A stretch of 64,000 nt of DNA. Source: Chloroflexota bacterium. GTDB lineage: Bacteria > Chloroflexota > Anaerolineae > Anaerolineales > VGOW01. Where the stretch lies: assembly GCA_016875735.1 (NCBI GenBank), contig VGOW01000011.1, forward strand, positions 9,288 through 73,287, in the 5' to 3' direction. The translations under genes were made by a program, and so were the position numbers. Every line of letters begins with the position of its first letter. The stretch's first letter is position 1. A model generated the notes under the pieces. That model was given only the letters and a program-made list of their open reading frames with translations. It searched no databases and was not told where the DNA came from. Below are positions 18,420 to 64,000 of the stretch, piece by piece.

Positions 18420-19166
18420 GTGAGCACCGGCAAGCCACCCAGAGATCGCAGCTCAAACAACCCTGCAATGCCAAACGACGACTTCGTCTGGACAGTCCGC
18501 ACGTTCATCTACCAGCATTTTGCGGCGACGACGCGCGCGCCGGGGCTCGGCGAGATCGCCCGACACTTTGGCCTGAGCGCCGGGCAAGCGGGCGAAACCC
18601 TCACGGCGCTTCACGAGAAGCACGCGCTCTTTCTCGAACCGGGGACGCTCGACATCCGCATCGCCAATCCCTTTTCGGCCATCCCCACTCCGTTCGAGGT
18701 GGAAGCGGACGGCAAAAGATATTGGGCCAACTGCGCCTGGGATAGTTTCGGCATCCCCGCCGCCCTGCACGCCACCGAGGCCGCCATCCGATCGGTGTGC
18801 GCTCACAGCGGAGCGCCGCTGTCGTTGAGCGTGAAGCAAGGTCGGGCCGTGAGCAGCGGAGAAGTCGTCCATTTTCTCGTGCCGTTCCAACGGTGGTACG
18901 AAGATATGACCTTCACTTGAGCGACGATCCGATTCTTCCGGTCGGAAGAAGACTTACAGCAGTGGCAAAGCGAGCGCGGCAAGGCCGAGGGCGAAACGCT
19001 CCGCCCCGAACAAGTTTGGGAGTTGTCGCGACTGTGGTATCACAACCGCCTCTCGCCGGACTACCGGGGCCGAACGGTAGCGCAAGTGGAAGAGATTTTC
19101 CACGCGCTCAATCTCACCTCGAAGTTTTGGTACATGGACAAGCCGACGGACGAATTGCAGAAGTGA
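18420..19166 (+). CDS. alkylmercury-lyase (MerB)-family protein with in-frame UGA at 18918-18920 (candidate selenocysteine)
   Basis: The track ORF stops at the TGA at 18918. The same frame then stays open for 81 codons with no start codon, and continues the MerB fold ('ATIRFFRSEEDLQQW...'). 'NCAWD' and 'VCAHSGAPLSLSV' match the MerB Cys96/Asp99 and Cys117 regions. A hairpin lies at 18933-18950. An alternative start is the ATG at 18468. Confidence 0.7.
18933..18950 (+). promoter_or_regulatory. SECIS-like hairpin downstream of UGA 18918
   Basis: A perfect 7-bp stem TTCTTCC/GGAAGAA with loop GGTC. It begins 12 nt after the UGA. Confidence 0.6.
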
Positions 19167-20713
19167 CTGTCGGCAACAAGGCTTTTCACCACTGAGTTCA
19201 CAGAGAACACGGAGAAGACCCATAAAAATCTCTGTGAACTCTGTGGCCTCAGTGGTTCAAATGCCAGTTCTTGTGCGGGATTCGGATTCAAGAAGCGCTC
19301 TCTCAGGGCGCCGCGCAGAGCAATTCGTTCGATGCATTCGGCAGTATCGGCGGGCAACAGCGGCGGCTGATGCTGTTCGATGAGCGCGCGAGTCCGGGTG
19401 TTCACCCGACTCTCGAAAGCCAACCGCTCCGAGTCGGCCCACTCTTTATCTCCACCCCGATACAGCAATTGCGAATACCACACATCGCGCATGTGTTCAA
19501 GCGTATAGGGATGGGTGACAAATTCGCCCCTCGTTTCAACTCCGGCAAATAGATTGAGCGACAACGAGTCGGCGTCCACCGCCACCGCGCCGAAGAGGTG
19601 CGAGAGCATCGCGGCAATTTCGTCGGTCGCCGCAATCATCTCCGGCATCACCACCGTCGCGCTTCCCAGCAACCCCACATCGTGAATCAGATTCGCGCCG
19701 ACGAGGCTGGCCATCATGCACGACGAGGCCGCTTCGAGAATCGCTTGCCCGTCGAACGTCTGCGAGTCGCTGGTACCGCCGGTGCCGAAATTTGGCAGTT
19801 CGAAATAATGCGCCATCTCGGCCATCAGCGAATTGCCCAATTGAAACTCCGGCGCCCCGTATGAAAACACGGTGGTCTTCATATCCATCACCGAAGCCAT
19901 GCCGCCGAAGATGAACGGCGCGCCCGGGCGTTTGAGTTGATGCACGACCAACGCGCTGAGCGATTCGGCGCACAGTTGAGCGATGATGGCCGCCTGACTC
20001 TGCGGGGCCGTGCCGCCCATCGCCGCATACGGAACATAGGCGACGGGCAGGCCGTGTTCGGCGCAATACAACAGCTTGCCGATAGACTCATCGGGGTGCA
20101 GCAACGGGGACACCGGCTCCGCGTAAACGATCACGTTCGAGCGCGCGCGCAATGCCGAGTCGCCGCCCACCGCCAATGCGGCCATCTCTCGCATGTCGCG
20201 CAGTGAGTCGAGAGAGATGGGCATGGTCAGCACGGGCTTCGTCGAATGCTGGAGGCACTGCGCCAGCGATACGCGGTCGGCGATCTCCGGCGGGCAATCG
20301 GCAGTCAAGCCGGAGGCGGTGATGAAGTGAATGTTTGGCAGTGAGTCGGCGAGCACGGCATTGCCAATCACATCCTGTTTGAGGCATGGCCGCCGCTCGC
20401 GCGTGAACGGATCGAGCACGTCGGGCGCGTCGGTGTGCGCCCCGTAATAAATGTTGCGGCCCTCCAAGCGCATGGCCTCGCCGCCATGGCGCGCAAAAAT
20501 CGAAATCGCGCTCGGCGCGCACTCCACTGCTTGCACGATCAAGTGCGGCGGAATGAAAACGCGGTCGCCTTCGATGCGCGCGCCCGCGCGCCGCAAAAGT
20601 TCGCGGGCTTCCGGCTCGGTGAGGCGCACGCCGATTCGGTCGAGCAAGTTGTGCGCGGCTTCGGCGATGGCTTCGCGCTCTTCGCCGCTCAAAAGGTGAA
20701 GTGTCGGTTTCAT
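19061..20713 (-). CDS. MttB-superfamily (trimethylamine methyltransferase family) protein, non-pyrrolysine type
   Basis: Full-length similarity to the MttB family ('PVAYVPYAAMGGTAPQS', 'GTGGTSDS'). There is no in-frame TAG. The C-terminal ~85 aa runs through a hairpin repeat and is antisense to the merB-like 3' end, so the native stop appears to be lost. Confidence 0.8.
   Translation of the reverse strand: MKPTLHLLSGEEREAIAEAAHNLLDRIGVRLTEPEARELLRRAGARIEGDRVFIPPHLIVQAVECAPSAISIFARHGGEAMRLEGRNIYYGAHTDAPDVLDPFTRERRPCLKQDVIGNAVLADSLPNIHFITASGLTADCPPEIADRVSLAQCLQHSTKPVLTMPISLDSLRDMREMAALAVGGDSALRARSNVIVYAEPVSPLLHPDESIGKLLYCAEHGLPVAYVPYAAMGGTAPQSQAAIIAQLCAESLSALVVHQLKRPGAPFIFGGMASVMDMKTTVFSYGAPEFQLGNSLMAEMAHYFELPNFGTGGTSDSQTFDGQAILEAASSCMMASLVGANLIHDVGLLGSATVVMPEMIAATDEIAAMLSHLFGAVAVDADSLSLNLFAGVETRGEFVTHPYTLEHMRDVWYSQLLYRGGDKEWADSERLAFESRVNTRTRALIEQHQPPLLPADTAECIERIALRGALRERFLNPNPAQELAFEPLRPQSSQRFLWVFSVFSVNSVVKSLVADSHFCNSSVGLSMYQNFEVRLSAWKISSTCATVRPR
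19187..19258. repeat. imperfect palindromic repeat element between convergent genes
   Basis: CCACTGAG-TTCACAGAG...CTCTGTGAA...CTCAGTGG. Confidence 0.7.
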
Positions 20714-20719
20714 GGGGAC

Positions 20720-54960: not shown

Positions 54961-55701
54961 TTATACCAACTTGGTCAGCCTCACTTTGCGCAGCAACTGC
55001 GCCTGTATTCCTTGCCGGATGAACGGCGCCGCCCCGCGCCCCGCGCGCGACAGCGCCTCCACCAATCGCAGTGACGTTTCCTCGCCGACGCTCCGATGCT
55101 CCCACTCCTCGCTGACACACTCGATCAGATCATCCGCGTCGTCGAACACATCCACCCATTCGAACCGGCGGGGCGCCGGGGCCGCGAACCAACCCTCATT
55201 CAGAATTTGATCCACCGCTGCGCTGGCCTGCGCGTGACCCACCGGGCCGTCGCCAACCCAGGTGAGGCCGCCGCACCGAGTCTCGCCTCCACTGCGATCT
55301 CGCACCCACACTTCCGGCTCATCCGCCACCGGGCGAATGTCGAGCACAAACCAGCGCGCCACTCGCCATGCTTCTCGGAGGGCATGAACCATGCCCGACG
55401 GCTGCACTCATCAAAGCGACCAGCCGAACACCGCCAGATCGAAACTCGACTCGGAGAAAGGCAATCGCTCGGCCTGCCCGTGCGCGAGGCGCGCGTTCGT
55501 GTCTTTGAGCGACTCGGCGCGCGCGGCGATCAACTCATCCCAATCCGAGTCGAGCGCAACCGTCAACGCCGTCTCCCGTAGATAATGGCGAATCATGCGC
55601 CCATCGCCCGCGCCGATCTCCAACACCCGCGCGCCGCGAAAGTCGGCCAGCGCGTGAAGGACATCATGCTCAAGTTGTTCGGGATTCGGGAAGTCTGTCA
55701 T
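54961..55701 (-). CDS. class I SAM-dependent methyltransferase interrupted by two consecutive in-frame UGA codons (recoded gene or pseudogene)
   Basis: Track ORFs 55411..55701 and 54961..55407 are in the same frame, separated only by TGATGA (55413-55408). Motif I is 'VLEIGAGDG'. '...FDLAVFGWSL-**-VQPSGMVHALREAWRV' is colinear with the usual MTase core, with no gap. A hairpin lies at 55380-55396. Confidence 0.55.
55380..55396 (-). promoter_or_regulatory. SECIS-like hairpin downstream of the UGA-UGA doublet
   Basis: On the coding strand this reads GGGCATG-GTT-CATGCCC, a perfect 7-bp stem. It starts 11 nt after the second UGA and 14 nt after the first. Confidence 0.45.
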
Positions 55702-58050: not shown

Positions 58051-59037
58051 ATGGAGTATCGCAACCTCGGCCCCACCGGCCTCGACGTTTCGGCGATCTG
58101 TCTCGGCACAATGCAGTTCAAGTGGACAGCCGATGAGTCGGCTTCGTATGCCGTGCTCGATTCGTTTTACGAGTCGGGCGGCAACTTCATCGACACCGCC
58201 GACATTTACTCGAACTGGGCGCCGGGCCTCTCCGGCGGCGAAGCCGAAACCGTCATCGGCGAATGGATGAAACGCAAAGGCAACCGCAGCAAAATCATCC
58301 TCGCCACCAAAGTGCGCGGCAAAATGTGGGATGGCCCCGACGGCGAAGGCCTCAGCCGCGCTCACATCATGCGCGCCGTCGAAGACTCTCTGCGCCGACT
58401 GCAAACCGACACCATTGACCTCTATCAATCGCACTGGCCCGATACCGACACTCGAATTGAAGAAACCATGCGCGCCTTCGATGATTTGGTGAAGCAGGGC
58501 AAAGCGCGGTTCGTCGGCTGTTCGAACTACAGCGGCGATCAATTGGCCGAAGCCCTGCAAGCCTCCAAGCGCGACGGGCTGATCGAATACACCACCATTC
58601 AACCCCACTGGTCGCTCGTCGAGCGGCAGAAGTTCGAACTCGAAACTTATCCCACCGTCAAAATCTACGGACTCGGCATCATTCCCTACAGCCCGCTCGG
58701 CCGCGGCTTCCTCACCGGTAAATACCGCGCCAACAAACCTCTGCCCAAGAGTCTGCGCATCGAAAGCGTGAGACCCCTGCTCAACAACAAGAACTTCATC
58801 CTCCTCGACAAACTCGAAGCCATCGGCAAAGCGCGCGGCAAGAGCATCGCCCAAATCGCGCTCGGCTGGCTGCTTGCCCGCGATCAAGTGGTGTCGGTCA
58901 TCATCGGCGCGAACACCCCCGAGCAGCTCGCCGACAGTCTCGGCGCATCGGGCCTGCGCCTCACCGACGACGAGATGTACGAACTCAACCGACTCACCTC
59001 GTGGGCCACGGGCATCCTCAGCACGCCGGTATCGTGA
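58051..59037 (+). CDS. aldo/keto reductase
   Basis: Contains 'LGTMQFKW', 'FIDTADIYS', 'LATKV', 'IDLYQSHWPD' and 'IPYSPLGRGFLTGKY'. The ATG is at 58051. Confidence 0.9.
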   Translation: MEYRNLGPTGLDVSAICLGTMQFKWTADESASYAVLDSFYESGGNFIDTADIYSNWAPGLSGGEAETVIGEWMKRKGNRSKIILATKVRGKMWDGPDGEGLSRAHIMRAVEDSLRRLQTDTIDLYQSHWPDTDTRIEETMRAFDDLVKQGKARFVGCSNYSGDQLAEALQASKRDGLIEYTTIQPHWSLVERQKFELETYPTVKIYGLGIIPYSPLGRGFLTGKYRANKPLPKSLRIESVRPLLNNKNFILLDKLEAIGKARGKSIAQIALGWLLARDQVVSVIIGANTPEQLADSLGASGLRLTDDEMYELNRLTSWATGILSTPVS

Positions 59038-60458
59038 ACCTCCTCCTCGCCTGCTACGAACTCGGCCACCAACCGCTCAGCCTCGCCTGGCCGCTGGCCT
59101 TCCTCAAACGCGCCGGGGCCGAAGCCATCGCGCTCGATCTCGCAGCCCAACCCTTCTCGGACGAACTTGCCGCGCAGGCCCGCTTCGTCGGCATCGCCGC
59201 GCCCATGCACACCGCCCTGCGCATCGGCGTGGAAGCCGCCGCCCGCGTGCGCGCCCTCAACCCCCGCGCGCACATCTGCTTCTTCGGTTTGTATGCCTCG
59301 CTCAACGAGGATTATTTGCTCGAGGGCATCGCCGATTCGGTGATCTCAGGCGAATACGAAGAAGCGCTCACGCAGTTGATCATCGCCATCCGGTCGGGGA
59401 ACCGCCACCCCGCTCAAGTGCCCGGCGTATCCACTCCCGACTCCCGCGCCCACCCCGCCCTCAACCGTCTCCCCTTCCCTCTCCCCGAACGATCATCATT
59501 GCCCGCGCTCGATCATTACACTCGCTATCGAAACAACGGCCACATCCAACTTGCCGGATACACCGAAGCCAGCCGGGGTTGTTTGCACACTTGCGCTCAT
59601 TGCCCCATCGCGCCGGTGTACGGCGGTCGCTTTTTCGTCGCGCCAATCGAAACCGTCCTCGCCGACATTCGCCAGCAAATCGACTCGGGCGCGCAGCACA
59701 TCACCTTCGGCGACCCCGATTTTCTCAACGGCCCGCGCCACGCCCTCGACATCGCCCGCGCCCTGCGCGCCGAGTTTCCTCAAGTCACTTTCGACTTCAC
59801 GGCCAAAGTCGAACACATCATCAAACACCACTCGCTGTTCCCCCAATTCGCCGAACTTGGCTGCGCGTTCATCACTTCGGCCATCGAATCGCTCAGTGAT
59901 GTTGTTCTGCAGAGGCTCGCCAAAAGCCACACCGCGGCCGACATCGAAACTGCGCTGGGCATCCTCGACTCGGCGGGCATCGCCCTGCACCCCACGCTCG
60001 TCGCCTTCACCCCCTGGACGACGCTCGACGATTACCTCGCGCAGATCGAATGGATTCACGCGCGCGGACTCGCTCATCACATCGCGCCCGTGCAGCTGTC
60101 CATTCGACTCCTCGTCCCGCCGCGCTCCGCCCTCCTCAATCTGCCCGACACCCCGCATTGGCTCGGCCCATTGGACTCCGCCAACTTCACCTACCGTTGG
60201 TCGCACCCCGATCCGCGAATGGATAAACTCCACTCTCAAATTTCCGCTCTCGTTGAAGAGGCCGAACTCGCCGACGAGCCTGCTCCACTCGCCCACAACC
60301 GAATCCGCGAAGCGGCCTTCACCGCCGCCGGGCTTTTCGCCCCCCCGCCCTCTCCGTCTCACATCCCCCGCCCCGCCCCTCCGCGCCTCACCGAAAACTG
60401 GTTCTGTTGAGCAGAGCCGACACGAGATCAGGTTGGTCTTTTAGCGAATGGCGGATAG
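59034..60458 (+). CDS. radical SAM enzyme with a C-U-A-E-P tail (in-frame UGA at 60408-60410; CUAEP/CCAEP-tail radical SAM selenoprotein family)
   Basis: Cluster motif 'SRGCLHTCAHCP' (CX3CX2C), plus an N-terminal B12-binding-like domain. The track ORF ends '...TENWFC' at a TGA, and the next codons read A-E-P. The frame continues 15 codons to the TAG at 60456. The GTG at 59034 overlaps the AKR stop (GTGA). Confidence 0.75.
60424..60440 (+). promoter_or_regulatory. SECIS-like hairpin downstream of UGA 60408
   Basis: GAGATCA-GGT-TGGTCTT, a 7-bp stem that includes two G-U wobble pairs. It starts 13 nt after the UGA. Confidence 0.5.
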
Positions 60459-60519
60459 CGGATAGCAGGTAGCAGGTAGCAAGTAGCATTGTTCATTGTT
60501 CATTGTTCATTGTTCATTC
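60446..60519. repeat. consecutive heptamer arrays (GCGGATA x2, GCAGGTA x3, CATTGTT x4)
   Basis: GGCGGATAGCGGATAGCAGGTAGCAGGTAGCAAGTAGCATTGTTCATTGTTCATTGTTCATTGTTCATTC. Confidence 0.8.
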
Positions 60520-61508: not shown

Positions 61509-61805
61509 ATGCGCCTCTCCCGCAATCTCGCCATCCTCACCGCGTCATCGCTCATCCTCTCGCTTGGGCAAGAAATGTGGTTCGGCTTCGCGCCCGAATT
61601 TCTGCGCGCGCTCGGCGCGGGGGTCATCGCCGTCGGCTTCTTCAGCAGTCTGCAAGATTTGTTCGAAGCCCTCTATCACTACCCGGGCGGATGGCTCACG
61701 GATCGTTACGGCGTGCGCCGCTCGTTGATCATCGCTAACCTCGCCGCCGGACTCGGATACTTCATCTACCTCATCAGCCCGCATTTCGCCGTAAAGTTTG
61801 AGTGA
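61509..61805 (+). pseudogene. N-terminal fragment of an MFS transporter
   Basis: 98 aa covering about 2-3 TM segments, with 'GGWLTDRYGVRRSLI' (the MFS motif A region). It ends at a 15-bp direct repeat. An intact MFS protein has 12 TM segments. Confidence 0.55.
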
Positions 61806-61888: not shown

Positions 61889-64000
61889 CTATCGCGCGGA
61901 AACGGCGCCGGCGGCTCGCTTCGAATGCTCGGGGGATGGCACAGTCCATTGCACATCGTACTCACAGAAGGCGTCGCCACTGTGAGCGCAGTGCGTCTTC
62001 TCCACCGTGCCCTCGCCGCCCGCGGCTCTGATCGCCCCCTCCATCCAGCCCGGCAAATTATAGTGGCACATGTCGCTCGTCAACCCATCCGCCTCCCTCA
62101 CCTGCACTCGGAGGTGGCCCTCGCTTTCAACTTGCACCTTCACCGGCGCCTCCCCCCAATAATGGCGAATGATGAGATCCATTCGGCGGAGGGTGTGGCC
62201 CGGATCGCCCTTCTTGAAGTAGTGCGAGAGTCCCCGATGCAAATCGTCTTCCGCCAAATACGCCGCCATCTCGCGCAGCACGTCCAAACGCCCGCCAGCC
62301 AGCTCTTTGAGAATGGCCGCCATGAGCGTCTTGAGATATTCGCGGGGGAATTCGGCGTTGTCGAGCAGCTCGCCGCGAAGGATGTTTGCCAGCTCGGGCG
62401 GCAGCCGTTTGAGCAAACGATCCAGCGCCCCGCCGCCGTATCGCTCGGCCACAAAATTGAGGCGCGCGCGCAAGGCCGAGCCGCGCGTGACCTGCCCGGC
62501 GCTGGCCGACACCATGAATTGAGCGATGGCTTGCTGAAGGGTCACCGCCATTTCACTCAACGACTGCGCCGATGCGCTCACCTCTTCAACCTGCGCGCTC
62601 ATCTCTTCCGTTTCTGCGCTCACTTCTTCTACCGCCGCGCCGTTTTCCTCACTCACGCTGGCAATGTTTTCCATTGACTGCACAACCACTTCCGATCCCG
62701 CCGCCATCTTTGCCGTCGCCGCCATCGTCTCTTTCACCACCCCGCTCACCACATCGGTCGCCGCAACCAAGTCACCCGAAAGCGTCATCATGTGCTGGGT
62801 GGCCGCCAGCGCCGACTGGGCTTGCTTTTGCACCGCCTCGGCCGCTTTGAGGATGTTCGCCAGCGCATCCCCCGCCTGATTCGCCCGCGCCACGCCCGTC
62901 TCCACTTCCTTCGCGCCCGCGTCCATTGCCGACATCGCCTCGCCCATCGTCTGCTGGATGCCGCGAATCAACCCGCCGATCTCCTTCGTCGCCCCGCTCG
63001 CCCGCTCCGCCAACTTGCGAACCTCGTCGGCCACCACCGCAAAACCCCTGCCGTGCTCCCCGGCGCGCGCCGCCTCAATCGCCGCGTTCAGCGCCAGCAG
63101 ATTCGTCTGCGAGGCAATTTCTTCAATCGTCTCCACGATCACCCCAATCTGATCCGACCTCCGCCCCATCTCTCTCACCTTCTCCGCCGACAGGCCAACT
63201 TTGACTTTGATCGTCGCCATCCCGCGAATCGTTTCGTCCACCGTCTTGGCTCCGGCTCGCGCCGCCGTGGCCGTCTCCGCCGAATCAGCCGTCACCGCCT
63301 GCGCATTGCCCGACACTTGCCTCACCGCCGATGTGAGTTGCGAAGTCACATCGGACACTTTTCCAACAGCCTGCGCCTGTTCCTGCGCGCCGTGCGCCAG
63401 CCCCTCTATTGCCCGGCGCAGTTGTTCCATCGTCGTTGCTGTCGTCGTCACGCTTTCAGATTGTTGGGCGGTGCCCTTGGCGACCTGCTGAATGATGGAA
63501 GAAATTTGCGATGTCGCCCGCCCGGCCTGATTGGCCGCCGAAGCCAATTGCCCGGAAGCGGCGGCGAGGTTGTTGGCGCTGGCGGCAACATCCGAGACAG
63601 TTTGCCGGAGGGTCACGATCATTTTGGCGAAGGCCGCGCCCAGCGCGTCCCGATCCGACTTGGGCGTAACATCCTTTGTCAGATCGTTGCGAGCCATTCT
63701 CGCGGCCACCTCGGCCATCTCCTTGAGGTAGGCCACCATGTCCCGGAATGTCCCGGCCATGACGCCAATCTCGTCCCGACTGGCAATGTCTATTTGTTGG
63801 TCGACATCGCCCCCGGCGATGGCTTGGGCCGCTGTTGCCAGGCGCTTGACCGGGCGGGTAATGGCCCGCGCGCTGAACACACCCAGGCCCAAACCGATCC
63901 CCAACGCCACCCCAACCAGAATCAACGAAGTCGTGATCACTGCCTGGACACGAGCGTTAGCGGCCGCCTGGGCCTCGTTCAGACGGGTAGCTTCCAGATC
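61889..64000 (-). CDS. methyl-accepting chemotaxis protein, 5'-partial (continues beyond the window), with an extra C-terminal V4R/DUF2378-like domain
   Basis: Has a TM segment, a HAMP domain ('[17 protein letters not shown]...') and an MA signalling domain ('[39 protein letters not shown]'). The frame stays open to position 64000. The C-terminus ends '[18 protein letters not shown]'. Confidence 0.85.

Follow-up and report, generated by a model that had tools for sequence, protein, structure and literature searches.

A predicted CUAEP-tail radical SAM selenoenzyme from a Chloroflexota bacterium, its SECIS hairpin and its kinship with ArsL

To our knowledge, ArsL is the only radical S-adenosylmethionine (SAM) enzyme of canonical fold that makes a 3-amino-3-carboxypropyl (ACP) radical and a C–As bond. 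It splits SAM into methylthioadenosine (MTA) and the ACP radical, the As(III) substrate being bound by cysteines of its tail (10.1101/2024.02.01.577332; 10.64898/2026.04.29.721666), and for its homologues a lack of cobalamin binding has been reported (PMC12931638). A second family is defined by the NCBIfam equivalog model NF040546 ('CUAEP/CCAEP-tail radical SAM (seleno)protein', cutoff 500 bits) and has been mentioned as an uncharacterised selenoprotein with a rare CU motif (Haft preprint, 10.1101/2022.07.06.499078). That preprint is the sole mention we found; no paper on the function of the family was retrieved, and a 2026 review of prokaryotic selenoproteins (PMC13188914) includes it neither by accession nor by name. 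Clustered at 50% identity (E ≤ 1e-30) the family numbers 425 clusters, ArsL-like relatives counted in, and its members occur in many phyla. Here we describe an additional member of this already catalogued family, encoded at 59034–60458 in a 64,000-nucleotide stretch of DNA from a Chloroflexota bacterium (contig VGOW01000011.1, positions 9,288 to 73,287; hereafter the window, in whose numbering coordinates are given). The gene codes for a predicted radical SAM selenoenzyme that gene callers cut short at an in-frame UGA.

Membership was established with the read-through product, scored with U written as C. Against NF040546 it reaches 683.3 bits (E = 1.5e-205), and the alignment spans profile positions 2–467 of 468, that is, through and past the UGA. 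The window gene shares with the family the CX3CX2C core, the L-T-E-x-W-F-C-[U/C]-A-E-P tail and the alternation of selenocysteine (Sec) with Cys, and no family-defining feature differs. What sets it apart from other members is a lineage-specific aldo/keto reductase (AKR) gene with a GTGA overlap, and last residues that enter a heptamer-repeat tract. The original prediction, made from the letters of the window, had named a CUAEP-tail radical SAM family truncated by the open reading frame (ORF) caller and had held the family's substrate to be undescribed; the profile search bears out the former and our reading of the literature the latter.

The reading frame on the forward strand runs ...PRLTENWFC-UGA-AEPTRDQVGLLANGG-TAG. 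The codons following the TGA are GCA GAG CCG (A-E-P), the downstream residues continue A-E-P-T-R-D-Q..., and the frame stays open for 15 codons up to the TAG, as had been read off the sequence beforehand. Gene callers end the product at 458 residues (...WFC), and a 100% identical database protein (P0001) is likewise called from GTG 59034 and cut at the UGA. This GTG, which had been proposed as the start and does overlap the stop of the upstream AKR gene, matches the beginning of the homologues (M.LL.ACYELGH); an upstream GTG at 59001 was ruled out as the start, every homologue beginning at the position of 59034. The predicted CX3CX2C motif, RGCLHTCAHCP, lies in the radical SAM core, where C183, C187 and C190 are invariant in 119 homologues and common to ArsL-type proteins too. 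In the tail, L452, E454, W456, F457 and C458 are invariant across the same 119.

Comparison of genomic loci shows what becomes of the UGA elsewhere. Eighty loci were drawn from contigs of one genome per species; the 80 come from Chloroflexota, Acidobacteriota, Nitrospirota, Gemmatimonadota, Rokubacteria/Methylomirabilota, Planctomycetota and Poribacteria, among other phyla, and the tail motif was readable in 71. W-F-C is followed by TGA in 58 of the 71, TGC in seven and TGT in six (59 TGA with the window counted), and in both types the residues that follow are A/S-E-P-T-x-x-Q. The CUAEP and CCAEP tails, whose comparison had been suggested as a check, are therefore both present, at 58 TGA versus 13 TGC/TGT loci. 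Protein databases carry the mark of the same codon: 81 of the best 120 protein clusters end at ...WFC and 38 go on as WFCCAEPT or WFCCSEPT, and when clusters at 50% identity are each represented once, about 39 end at WFC and about 40 read CCAEP. The tail motif is kept in relatives down to about 32% identity. Alternation of UGA with Cys codons, together with conserved codons downstream, is what classically marks a selenoprotein family. Given the profile alignment through the UGA and the alternation in 71 independent loci, this pattern is, at the level of sequence, far beyond chance, and the UGA at 60408–60410 reads as a Sec codon, not a stop.

A cultured organism is among the carriers. Thermomicrobium roseum DSM 5159 has a TGA-type CUAEP gene on its megaplasmid (NC_011961.1, 796591–798027; locus L094). 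Its record, too, ends the gene at the UGA, and the read-through tail is ...SWFC-U-AEPLEDPSGPVASQVR.

A 7-bp stem, GAGATCA-GGT-TGGTCTT, had been noted 13 nt past the UGA in the original prediction; it is confirmed here, covaries across the family and is largely absent from Cys-type genes. The hairpin, at 60424–60440, is present in the minimum-free-energy fold (z = -2.3 for 60399–60449), and its family-conserved stem pairs 60424–60429 with 60435–60440 around a loop that reads A-GGU-U in the window. An ungapped alignment of 57 UGA-type sequences (A2; stem columns 26–31 with 37–42) is 86% paired in the stem, despite a one-base shift of register in some members. Double-sided changes (AU, CG, GC, UA) occur in five of the six pairs; the covariation score was reached by none of 500 shuffles, and sliding the 3' partner by one column leaves pairing at about 50%. 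Loops in the family are A-G-U-U-N, A-G-U-U or G-G-U, with the G-U about 24–26 nt from the U of the UGA, and these bases also spell a conserved Gln codon (CAG) and the start of the codon after it. Since members without this Gln (L016, L043 and L077) still have the hairpin, the constraint acts on the RNA. Measured here as a run of unbroken pairs, the stem is longer in UGA-type than in Cys-type genes (medians 6 and 3 bp; Mann–Whitney p = 6e-6); the one Cys-type gene with a long stem, from Thermogemmatispora carboxidivorans PM5 (L075), looks like a recent conversion. The T. roseum gene has the hairpin as well.

These features mark 60424–60440, by covariation and geometry, as a bacterial Sec insertion sequence (SECIS) arranged as in SelB-dependent Sec insertion. 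The SECIS loop of Escherichia coli fdhF has G23-U24. Like SECIS elements of the fdhF type, the family hairpin begins about 13–16 nt after the UGA and places its apical-loop G-U about 23–26 nt from the U (in fdhF numbering). It differs from them in a shorter stem (6–7 bp), in a loop of A-G-U-U-N instead of GGUC that doubles as the conserved Gln codon, and in an added mini-hairpin enclosing the UGA, and no conserved bulged U was scored in it. A contrary view takes the UGA for a normal stop, or the gene for a decaying one, with a protein ending at ...WFC and with A-E-P and the hairpin a coincidence or a terminator. Such a view agrees with where gene callers end the ORF and with the finding of no Sec machinery in the window. 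It conflicts with codons conserved across phyla on the 3' side of the UGA, with a Cys codon at the same site in 13 loci, with a curated family model that takes in the tail, and with a hairpin that covaries, is specific to UGA-type genes, is followed by no T-run and coincides with no terminator called on the forward strand. We regard it as very improbable.

A second RNA structure, the mini-hairpin at 60399–60419, surrounds the UGA itself (Table 1) and appears in folds of both the window and the T. roseum sequences. Its stem is 94% paired across the 57 Sec-type sequences, with no double-sided changes, because the protein fixes most positions. Among the positions that close the loop, the third base of the Ala codon (60413) alone is free. 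A purine stands there in 55 of 57 Sec-type and 7 of 13 Cys-type genes, against a 51% background within these genes (Fisher p = 3e-4, computed on related and hence non-independent sequences). This contrast suggests selection at the RNA level on the mini-hairpin and hints that it is a second RNA element in Sec decoding.

Table 1. Features of the CUAEP-tail gene, two further UGA-containing genes of the window, and genes recurring near the family in 71 loci
Feature	Position or occurrence	Strand or placement	Remarks
Aldo/keto reductase gene (328 aa)	58051–59037	+	TGA stop overlaps the radical SAM GTG as GTGA, 59034–59037
CUAEP-tail radical SAM selenoprotein coding sequence	59034–60458	+	474 codons; TAG 60456–60458; Sec = residue 459
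N-terminal Rossmann-like domain (residues 3–115)	59040–59378	+	Degenerate B12-binding-like fold
Radical SAM core domain (residues 180–317)	59571–59984	+	Pfam PF04055, 35.5 bits vs gathering 29.5
CX3CX2C [4Fe-4S]/SAM motif, RGCLHTCAHCP	59580–59603	+	C183, C187, C190
Tail motif L-T-E-N-W-F-C-U-A-E-P (residues 452–462)	60387–60419	+	Conserved tail
Mini-hairpin UGGUUCUGU-UGA-GCAGAGCCG	60399–60419	+	9 bp, UGA as triloop; made of W-F-C-U-A-E-P codons
In-frame UGA (U459)	60408–60410	+	TGA/Cys-codon alternation among loci; aligned with second Cys of ArsL
Predicted SECIS hairpin GAGAUCA-GGU-UGGUCUU	60424–60440	+	7 bp including two G-U pairs; begins 13 nt after UGA
Methyltransferase with tandem UGA-UGA	54961–55701	-	TGA TGA 55413–55408; hairpin 55396–55380
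MerB-like gene (PF03243) with one in-frame UGA	18468–19166	+	TGA 18918–18920; hairpin 18933–18950
YggX / Fe(2+)-trafficking gene	25/71 loci	Directly upstream, same strand	Chloroflexota
Nfu-type Fe-S carrier	14/71 loci	Directly downstream	
LAL-type ATP-grasp (ATP-grasp_4 + LAL_C2, BacD/DdaF-like)	26/71 loci within the flanks searched, 24 within ~2 kb	Either side, either strand	Several phyla
DUF169	8/71 loci		Mostly Nitrospirota
Atg22-like MFS transporter	7/71 loci		Mostly Blastocatellia
Formyltransferase-like gene	19/71 loci	Divergent, upstream	Chloroflexota
LAL, L-amino-acid ligase; MFS, major facilitator superfamily.

The AKR gene upstream was the other proposed component of the locus. Its product matches Pfam Aldo_ket_red on an identical contig and falls under the cutoffs of all NCBIfam AKR types (best, L-glyceraldehyde-3-P reductase, 148 bits). 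Co-translation with the radical SAM gene had been predicted from the GTGA overlap. The overlap is real and makes translational coupling in this lineage plausible, while the adjacency, which had been put forward for checking across genomes, is confined to one syntenic Chloroflexota clade and recurs in none of the 71 wider loci; in only one of these does any AKR lie within about 9 kb, at a distance of 3.4 kb, on the opposite strand and at 24% identity. A dedicated two-enzyme pathway, with stoichiometric co-translation through GTGA and the AKR reducing the substrate or product of the radical SAM enzyme, might be read from the same 4-nt overlap in a 74%-identical relative and from gaps of 2–3 nt in relatives at 63–65% identity, one of them Cys-type. 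In the AKR-adjacent Chloroflexota contigs, however, the whole block of about 10 kb (RelA-SnoaL-SH3-methyltransferase-DZR-M20 peptidase-AKR-radical SAM), RelA and other housekeeping genes included, is syntenic, so shared descent explains the adjacency, and the AKR is missing from one relative, 65% identical, whose radical SAM gene has other neighbours. With an AKR of any kind near only that one of the 71 loci, we think such a pathway improbable. Partnership with the AKR as a family trait was rejected: AKR, M20, SET, SnoaL and DZR genes are unconserved in the 71 loci beyond the close clade, and the AKR is, on these comparisons, a lineage-specific neighbour and not a family partner.

On the other side of the gene, three abutting heptamer tandem arrays (TAGCGGA x3.6, TAGCAGG x3.7 and CATTGTT x4.6) occupy 60442–60518; they start within the last codons of the radical SAM gene, whose TAG stop lies inside them. 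Farther on, a 98-residue ORF on the forward strand (61509–61805) has a weak MFS_1 match and resembles the N-terminal remnant of a transporter gene, shortly before a convergent gene for a methyl-accepting chemotaxis protein (61889–63940).

Relatives outside the family point to ArsL. The ArsL model (NF040542, RCCLKC-tail) is the second-best NCBIfam match of the read-through product at 300.9 bits, under its cutoff of 450, and RCCLKC-tail proteins of Bacillus and Priestia plasmids are 35–40% identical over about 410 residues. A MAFFT alignment of the two families has 33 invariant residues in common, the cluster cysteines among them, and aligns the CC pair of ArsL with C458-U459. Both share the domain order, a vicinal chalcogen pair at the C-terminal tail and recurring genes for L-amino-acid ligase (LAL)-type ATP-grasp enzymes nearby. 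They differ in the tail itself (WFCUAEP in the window, FKRCCLKC in ArsL, with Pro in place of the third ArsL Cys), in about 45 extra residues that the CUAEP family has ahead of the tail as a helix and Pro-rich linker, in the use of Sec, in the lack of an ars operon context, and in a very different taxonomic range (Chloroflexota, Acidobacteriota, Nitrospirota and others for CUAEP). By these alignments, ArsL is the closest characterised relative of the CUAEP family.

Structural comparison points to AprD4. The AlphaFold2 (AF2) model of a 69%-identical Cys-type homologue (P0003) has a predicted local distance difference test score (pLDDT) of 95.6, tail excepted, and its best match among solved structures is AprD4 (PDB 6fd2; Foldseek E = 7e-18, TM ~0.7), followed by OxsB and TsrM. 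Sequence searches of the PDB gave no match with a single sequence and, with a profile, only distant B12-dependent radical SAM, AprD4 and MiaB proteins, with no closer solved relative and no structure from the ArsL family. AprD4, a cobalamin-free radical SAM diol dehydratase, likewise joins an N-terminal degenerate Rossmann-like domain to a radical SAM barrel; at 18% identity it differs in having no Cys/Sec tail and in performing 5'-deoxyadenosyl chemistry on an aminoglycoside. These comparisons temper the earlier proposal of an N-terminal B12-binding-like domain. A Pfam B12-binding match does exist, weak and sub-threshold at 29.8 bits against a gathering score of 32.1, and the domain is probably vestigial because ArsL homologues reportedly do not bind cobalamin and the best fold match, AprD4, is cobalamin-free.

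Neighbouring genes offer further hints (Table 1). YggX and Nfu probably service the Fe-S cluster of the enzyme in aerobes, to judge from their placement beside its gene. The recurring LAL-type ATP-grasp neighbours lead us to infer an amino-acid-like product of the CUAEP enzyme, one often passed on to further ligation. ArsL-like islands on B. cereus pAH820_272 (L095) and Priestia pBEH3 (L102) also hold an ATP-grasp gene, next to a carboxymuconolactone-decarboxylase-family gene and ArsR; the B. cereus enzyme is LAL-type (ATP-grasp_4 + LAL_C2), which suggests that in Bacillaceae arsinothricin-type compounds may go on to be built into peptides. The Bacillus and CUAEP-linked ATP-grasp proteins have LAL_C2 in common but are only 22–30% identical and may not be orthologues. 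Arsenic was rejected as a likely substrate of the CUAEP enzymes. Searches with the arsenic-island proteins of the B. cereus ArsL-like locus as queries found no ACR3, MIP, ArsD or GNAT (ArsN-like) homologues near the 71 loci, with single ArsR and ArsC hits at one locus each, so that arsenic-island genes are essentially absent there; the Bacillus and Priestia RCCLKC loci, by contrast, are full of ars genes.

Taken as a whole, the locus is best explained, and in our judgement with good probability, by a Sec-decoded CUAEP-tail radical SAM enzyme that would practise ArsL-like chemistry with its tail as ligand and has a lineage-specific AKR beside it. By homology the enzyme would fall in the ArsL/AprD4-like branch, its Rossmann domain vestigial, its core built on a CX3CX2C [4Fe-4S] motif and its C-terminal tail flexible. 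The Cys458-Sec459 pair would carry a soft, two-coordinate atom into the active site, much as the ArsL cysteines hold As(III) for attack by the ACP radical, and a SAM-derived radical would then form a carbon–heteroatom bond on the tail-held atom. Judging by gene context this atom would not be arsenic. The product would be an amino-acid-like compound, handled in many genomes by the neighbouring L-amino-acid-ligase-type ATP-grasp enzyme. In its most specific form the proposal is speculative, and we think it doubtful as a complete account: the CUAEP/CCAEP enzymes would be a large sister group of ArsL, spread across phyla, whose Cys-Sec or Cys-Cys tail offers a two-coordinate soft atom, for example Se, S, Hg or another metalloid, to the ACP radical, giving through a new carbon–heteroatom bond an amino acid not known before that the ligase turns into a dipeptide and that an Atg22-like MFS protein exports in some lineages.

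Several observations weigh against an ArsL-like, Sec-decoded enzyme. The third ArsL Cys aligns with P462, leaving the CUAEP tail with two chalcogen ligands to the three of ArsL; metalloid or metal-resistance context is lacking in the 71 loci; the ATP-grasp partner is missing from most of these and from the window; and the tail is the least confident part of the P0003 model (pLDDT 80, then 58). Rfam at gathering thresholds matched nothing in the whole window, the hairpin region included. No selA, selB or selD came out of NCBIfam scans of some 38 ORFs of the window, a span of 64 kb that cannot show genome-wide absence, and ARAGORN found neither tRNA-Sec nor any other tRNA in the window. On the matter of decoding, two other window genes carry an in-frame UGA with a hairpin at the same spacing, and these speak for Sec decoding in the source genome, as far as gene sequences can.

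Sec is a better hydrogen-atom and electron donor than Cys, and vicinal Cys/Sec pairs end the C-terminal tails of thioredoxin reductase (GCUG) and MerA (CC); CU motifs also occur in the selenoproteins SaoL, HgcA and MerT. The likeness to these proteins would be one of functional analogy: neighbouring Cys-Sec or Cys-Cys residues sit on a flexible C-terminal arm by which electrons or a soft metal reach a buried active site, while folds and chemistry are unrelated to those of the CUAEP enzyme. The Cys-Sec pair of the CUAEP enzyme could be a redox shuttle or hydrogen-atom donor instead of holding a substrate, a selenenylsulfide arm in the style of thioredoxin reductase that passes electrons or a hydrogen atom to a product radical, in ordinary 5'-deoxyadenosyl radical chemistry. 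A vicinal C-U on a low-confidence, Pro-rich tail, the presence of two chalcogens where ArsL has three, the want of metal or metalloid genes at the 71 loci, an NAD(P)H-type AKR tightly coupled in this clade that fits a redox theme, and the donor properties of Sec would all suit such a role. Yet the AKR is no family-wide neighbour, neither a thioredoxin nor a reductase is found as a recurring neighbour, and the nearest characterised homologue binds its substrate atom with the aligned CC pair (10.64898/2026.04.29.721666). We rate the redox tail, the foremost alternative, as unlikely and retain ArsL-like ligand chemistry as the working explanation.

The two further UGA genes look, by sequence comparison, like selenoprotein families missing from current curation. 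One is a Methyltransf_11/25 protein split by ORF callers, ...FGWSL-UGA-UGA-VQPSGMVHAL..., and, with two predicted Sec residues side by side, a candidate for a new selenoprotein family. In syntenic homologues the site is WSL-CC-V (L085), WSL-U-C-V (L084) and WSL-UU-V (L082), full-length database homologues have WSLCC in 12 of 12, and a perfect 7-bp hairpin (GGGCAUG-GUU-CAUGCCC, 55396–55380) is confined to the UGA-type genes; none of the curated NCBIfam families claims the tandem-UGA protein. An ArsM-like partnership with the radical SAM enzyme was considered and rejected, the methyltransferase lying near it only in the syntenic clade while distant Cys-type relatives sit in unrelated contexts.

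The other is a MerB-like gene whose product scores under the MerB and SaoL cutoffs. In alignment its UGA falls on the catalytic Cys of MerB2 (PDB 5c17), downstream of the C-x-x-D motif, and is followed by a hairpin, UUCUUCC-GGUC-GGAAGAA, and a conserved extension of 76–81 residues. Of the best 120 homologues, mostly from Chloroflexota, 119 end at the UGA site and the lone full-length one has Trp (TGG). The gene apparently represents, on this pattern, an uncurated selenoprotein family mis-annotated as a 150-residue 'organomercurial lyase'. On the reverse strand, an MttB-family (trimethylamine methyltransferase-like) gene at 19064–20719 (296 bits against a cutoff of 525) overlaps the read-through end by about 100 nt with its unconserved C-terminal 86 residues, and adjoins a cystathionine gamma-synthase gene and a cystine-type ABC transporter.

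The novelty of the locus is modest, and its value lies in quantitative evidence for the SECIS, in the rejection of the AKR as a partner of the family and in a testable hypothesis based on ArsL. A covarying SECIS whose loop is a Gln codon is a clean case of joint constraint on RNA and protein and could improve bacterial SECIS models. The routine mis-call as a 458-residue protein removes Sec459, the residue likeliest to do chemistry, and T. roseum, cultured and bearing a TGA-type gene, lends itself to a direct demonstration of Sec insertion. Sister status to ArsL, the alignment of Cys-Sec with Cys-Cys and the shared LAL neighbours make the function of a large family experimentally approachable. 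If the proposed chemistry is true, the CUAEP/CCAEP enzymes would belong to a hidden, widespread pathway for organo-chalcogen or organometallic amino acids in aerobic soil and freshwater bacteria.

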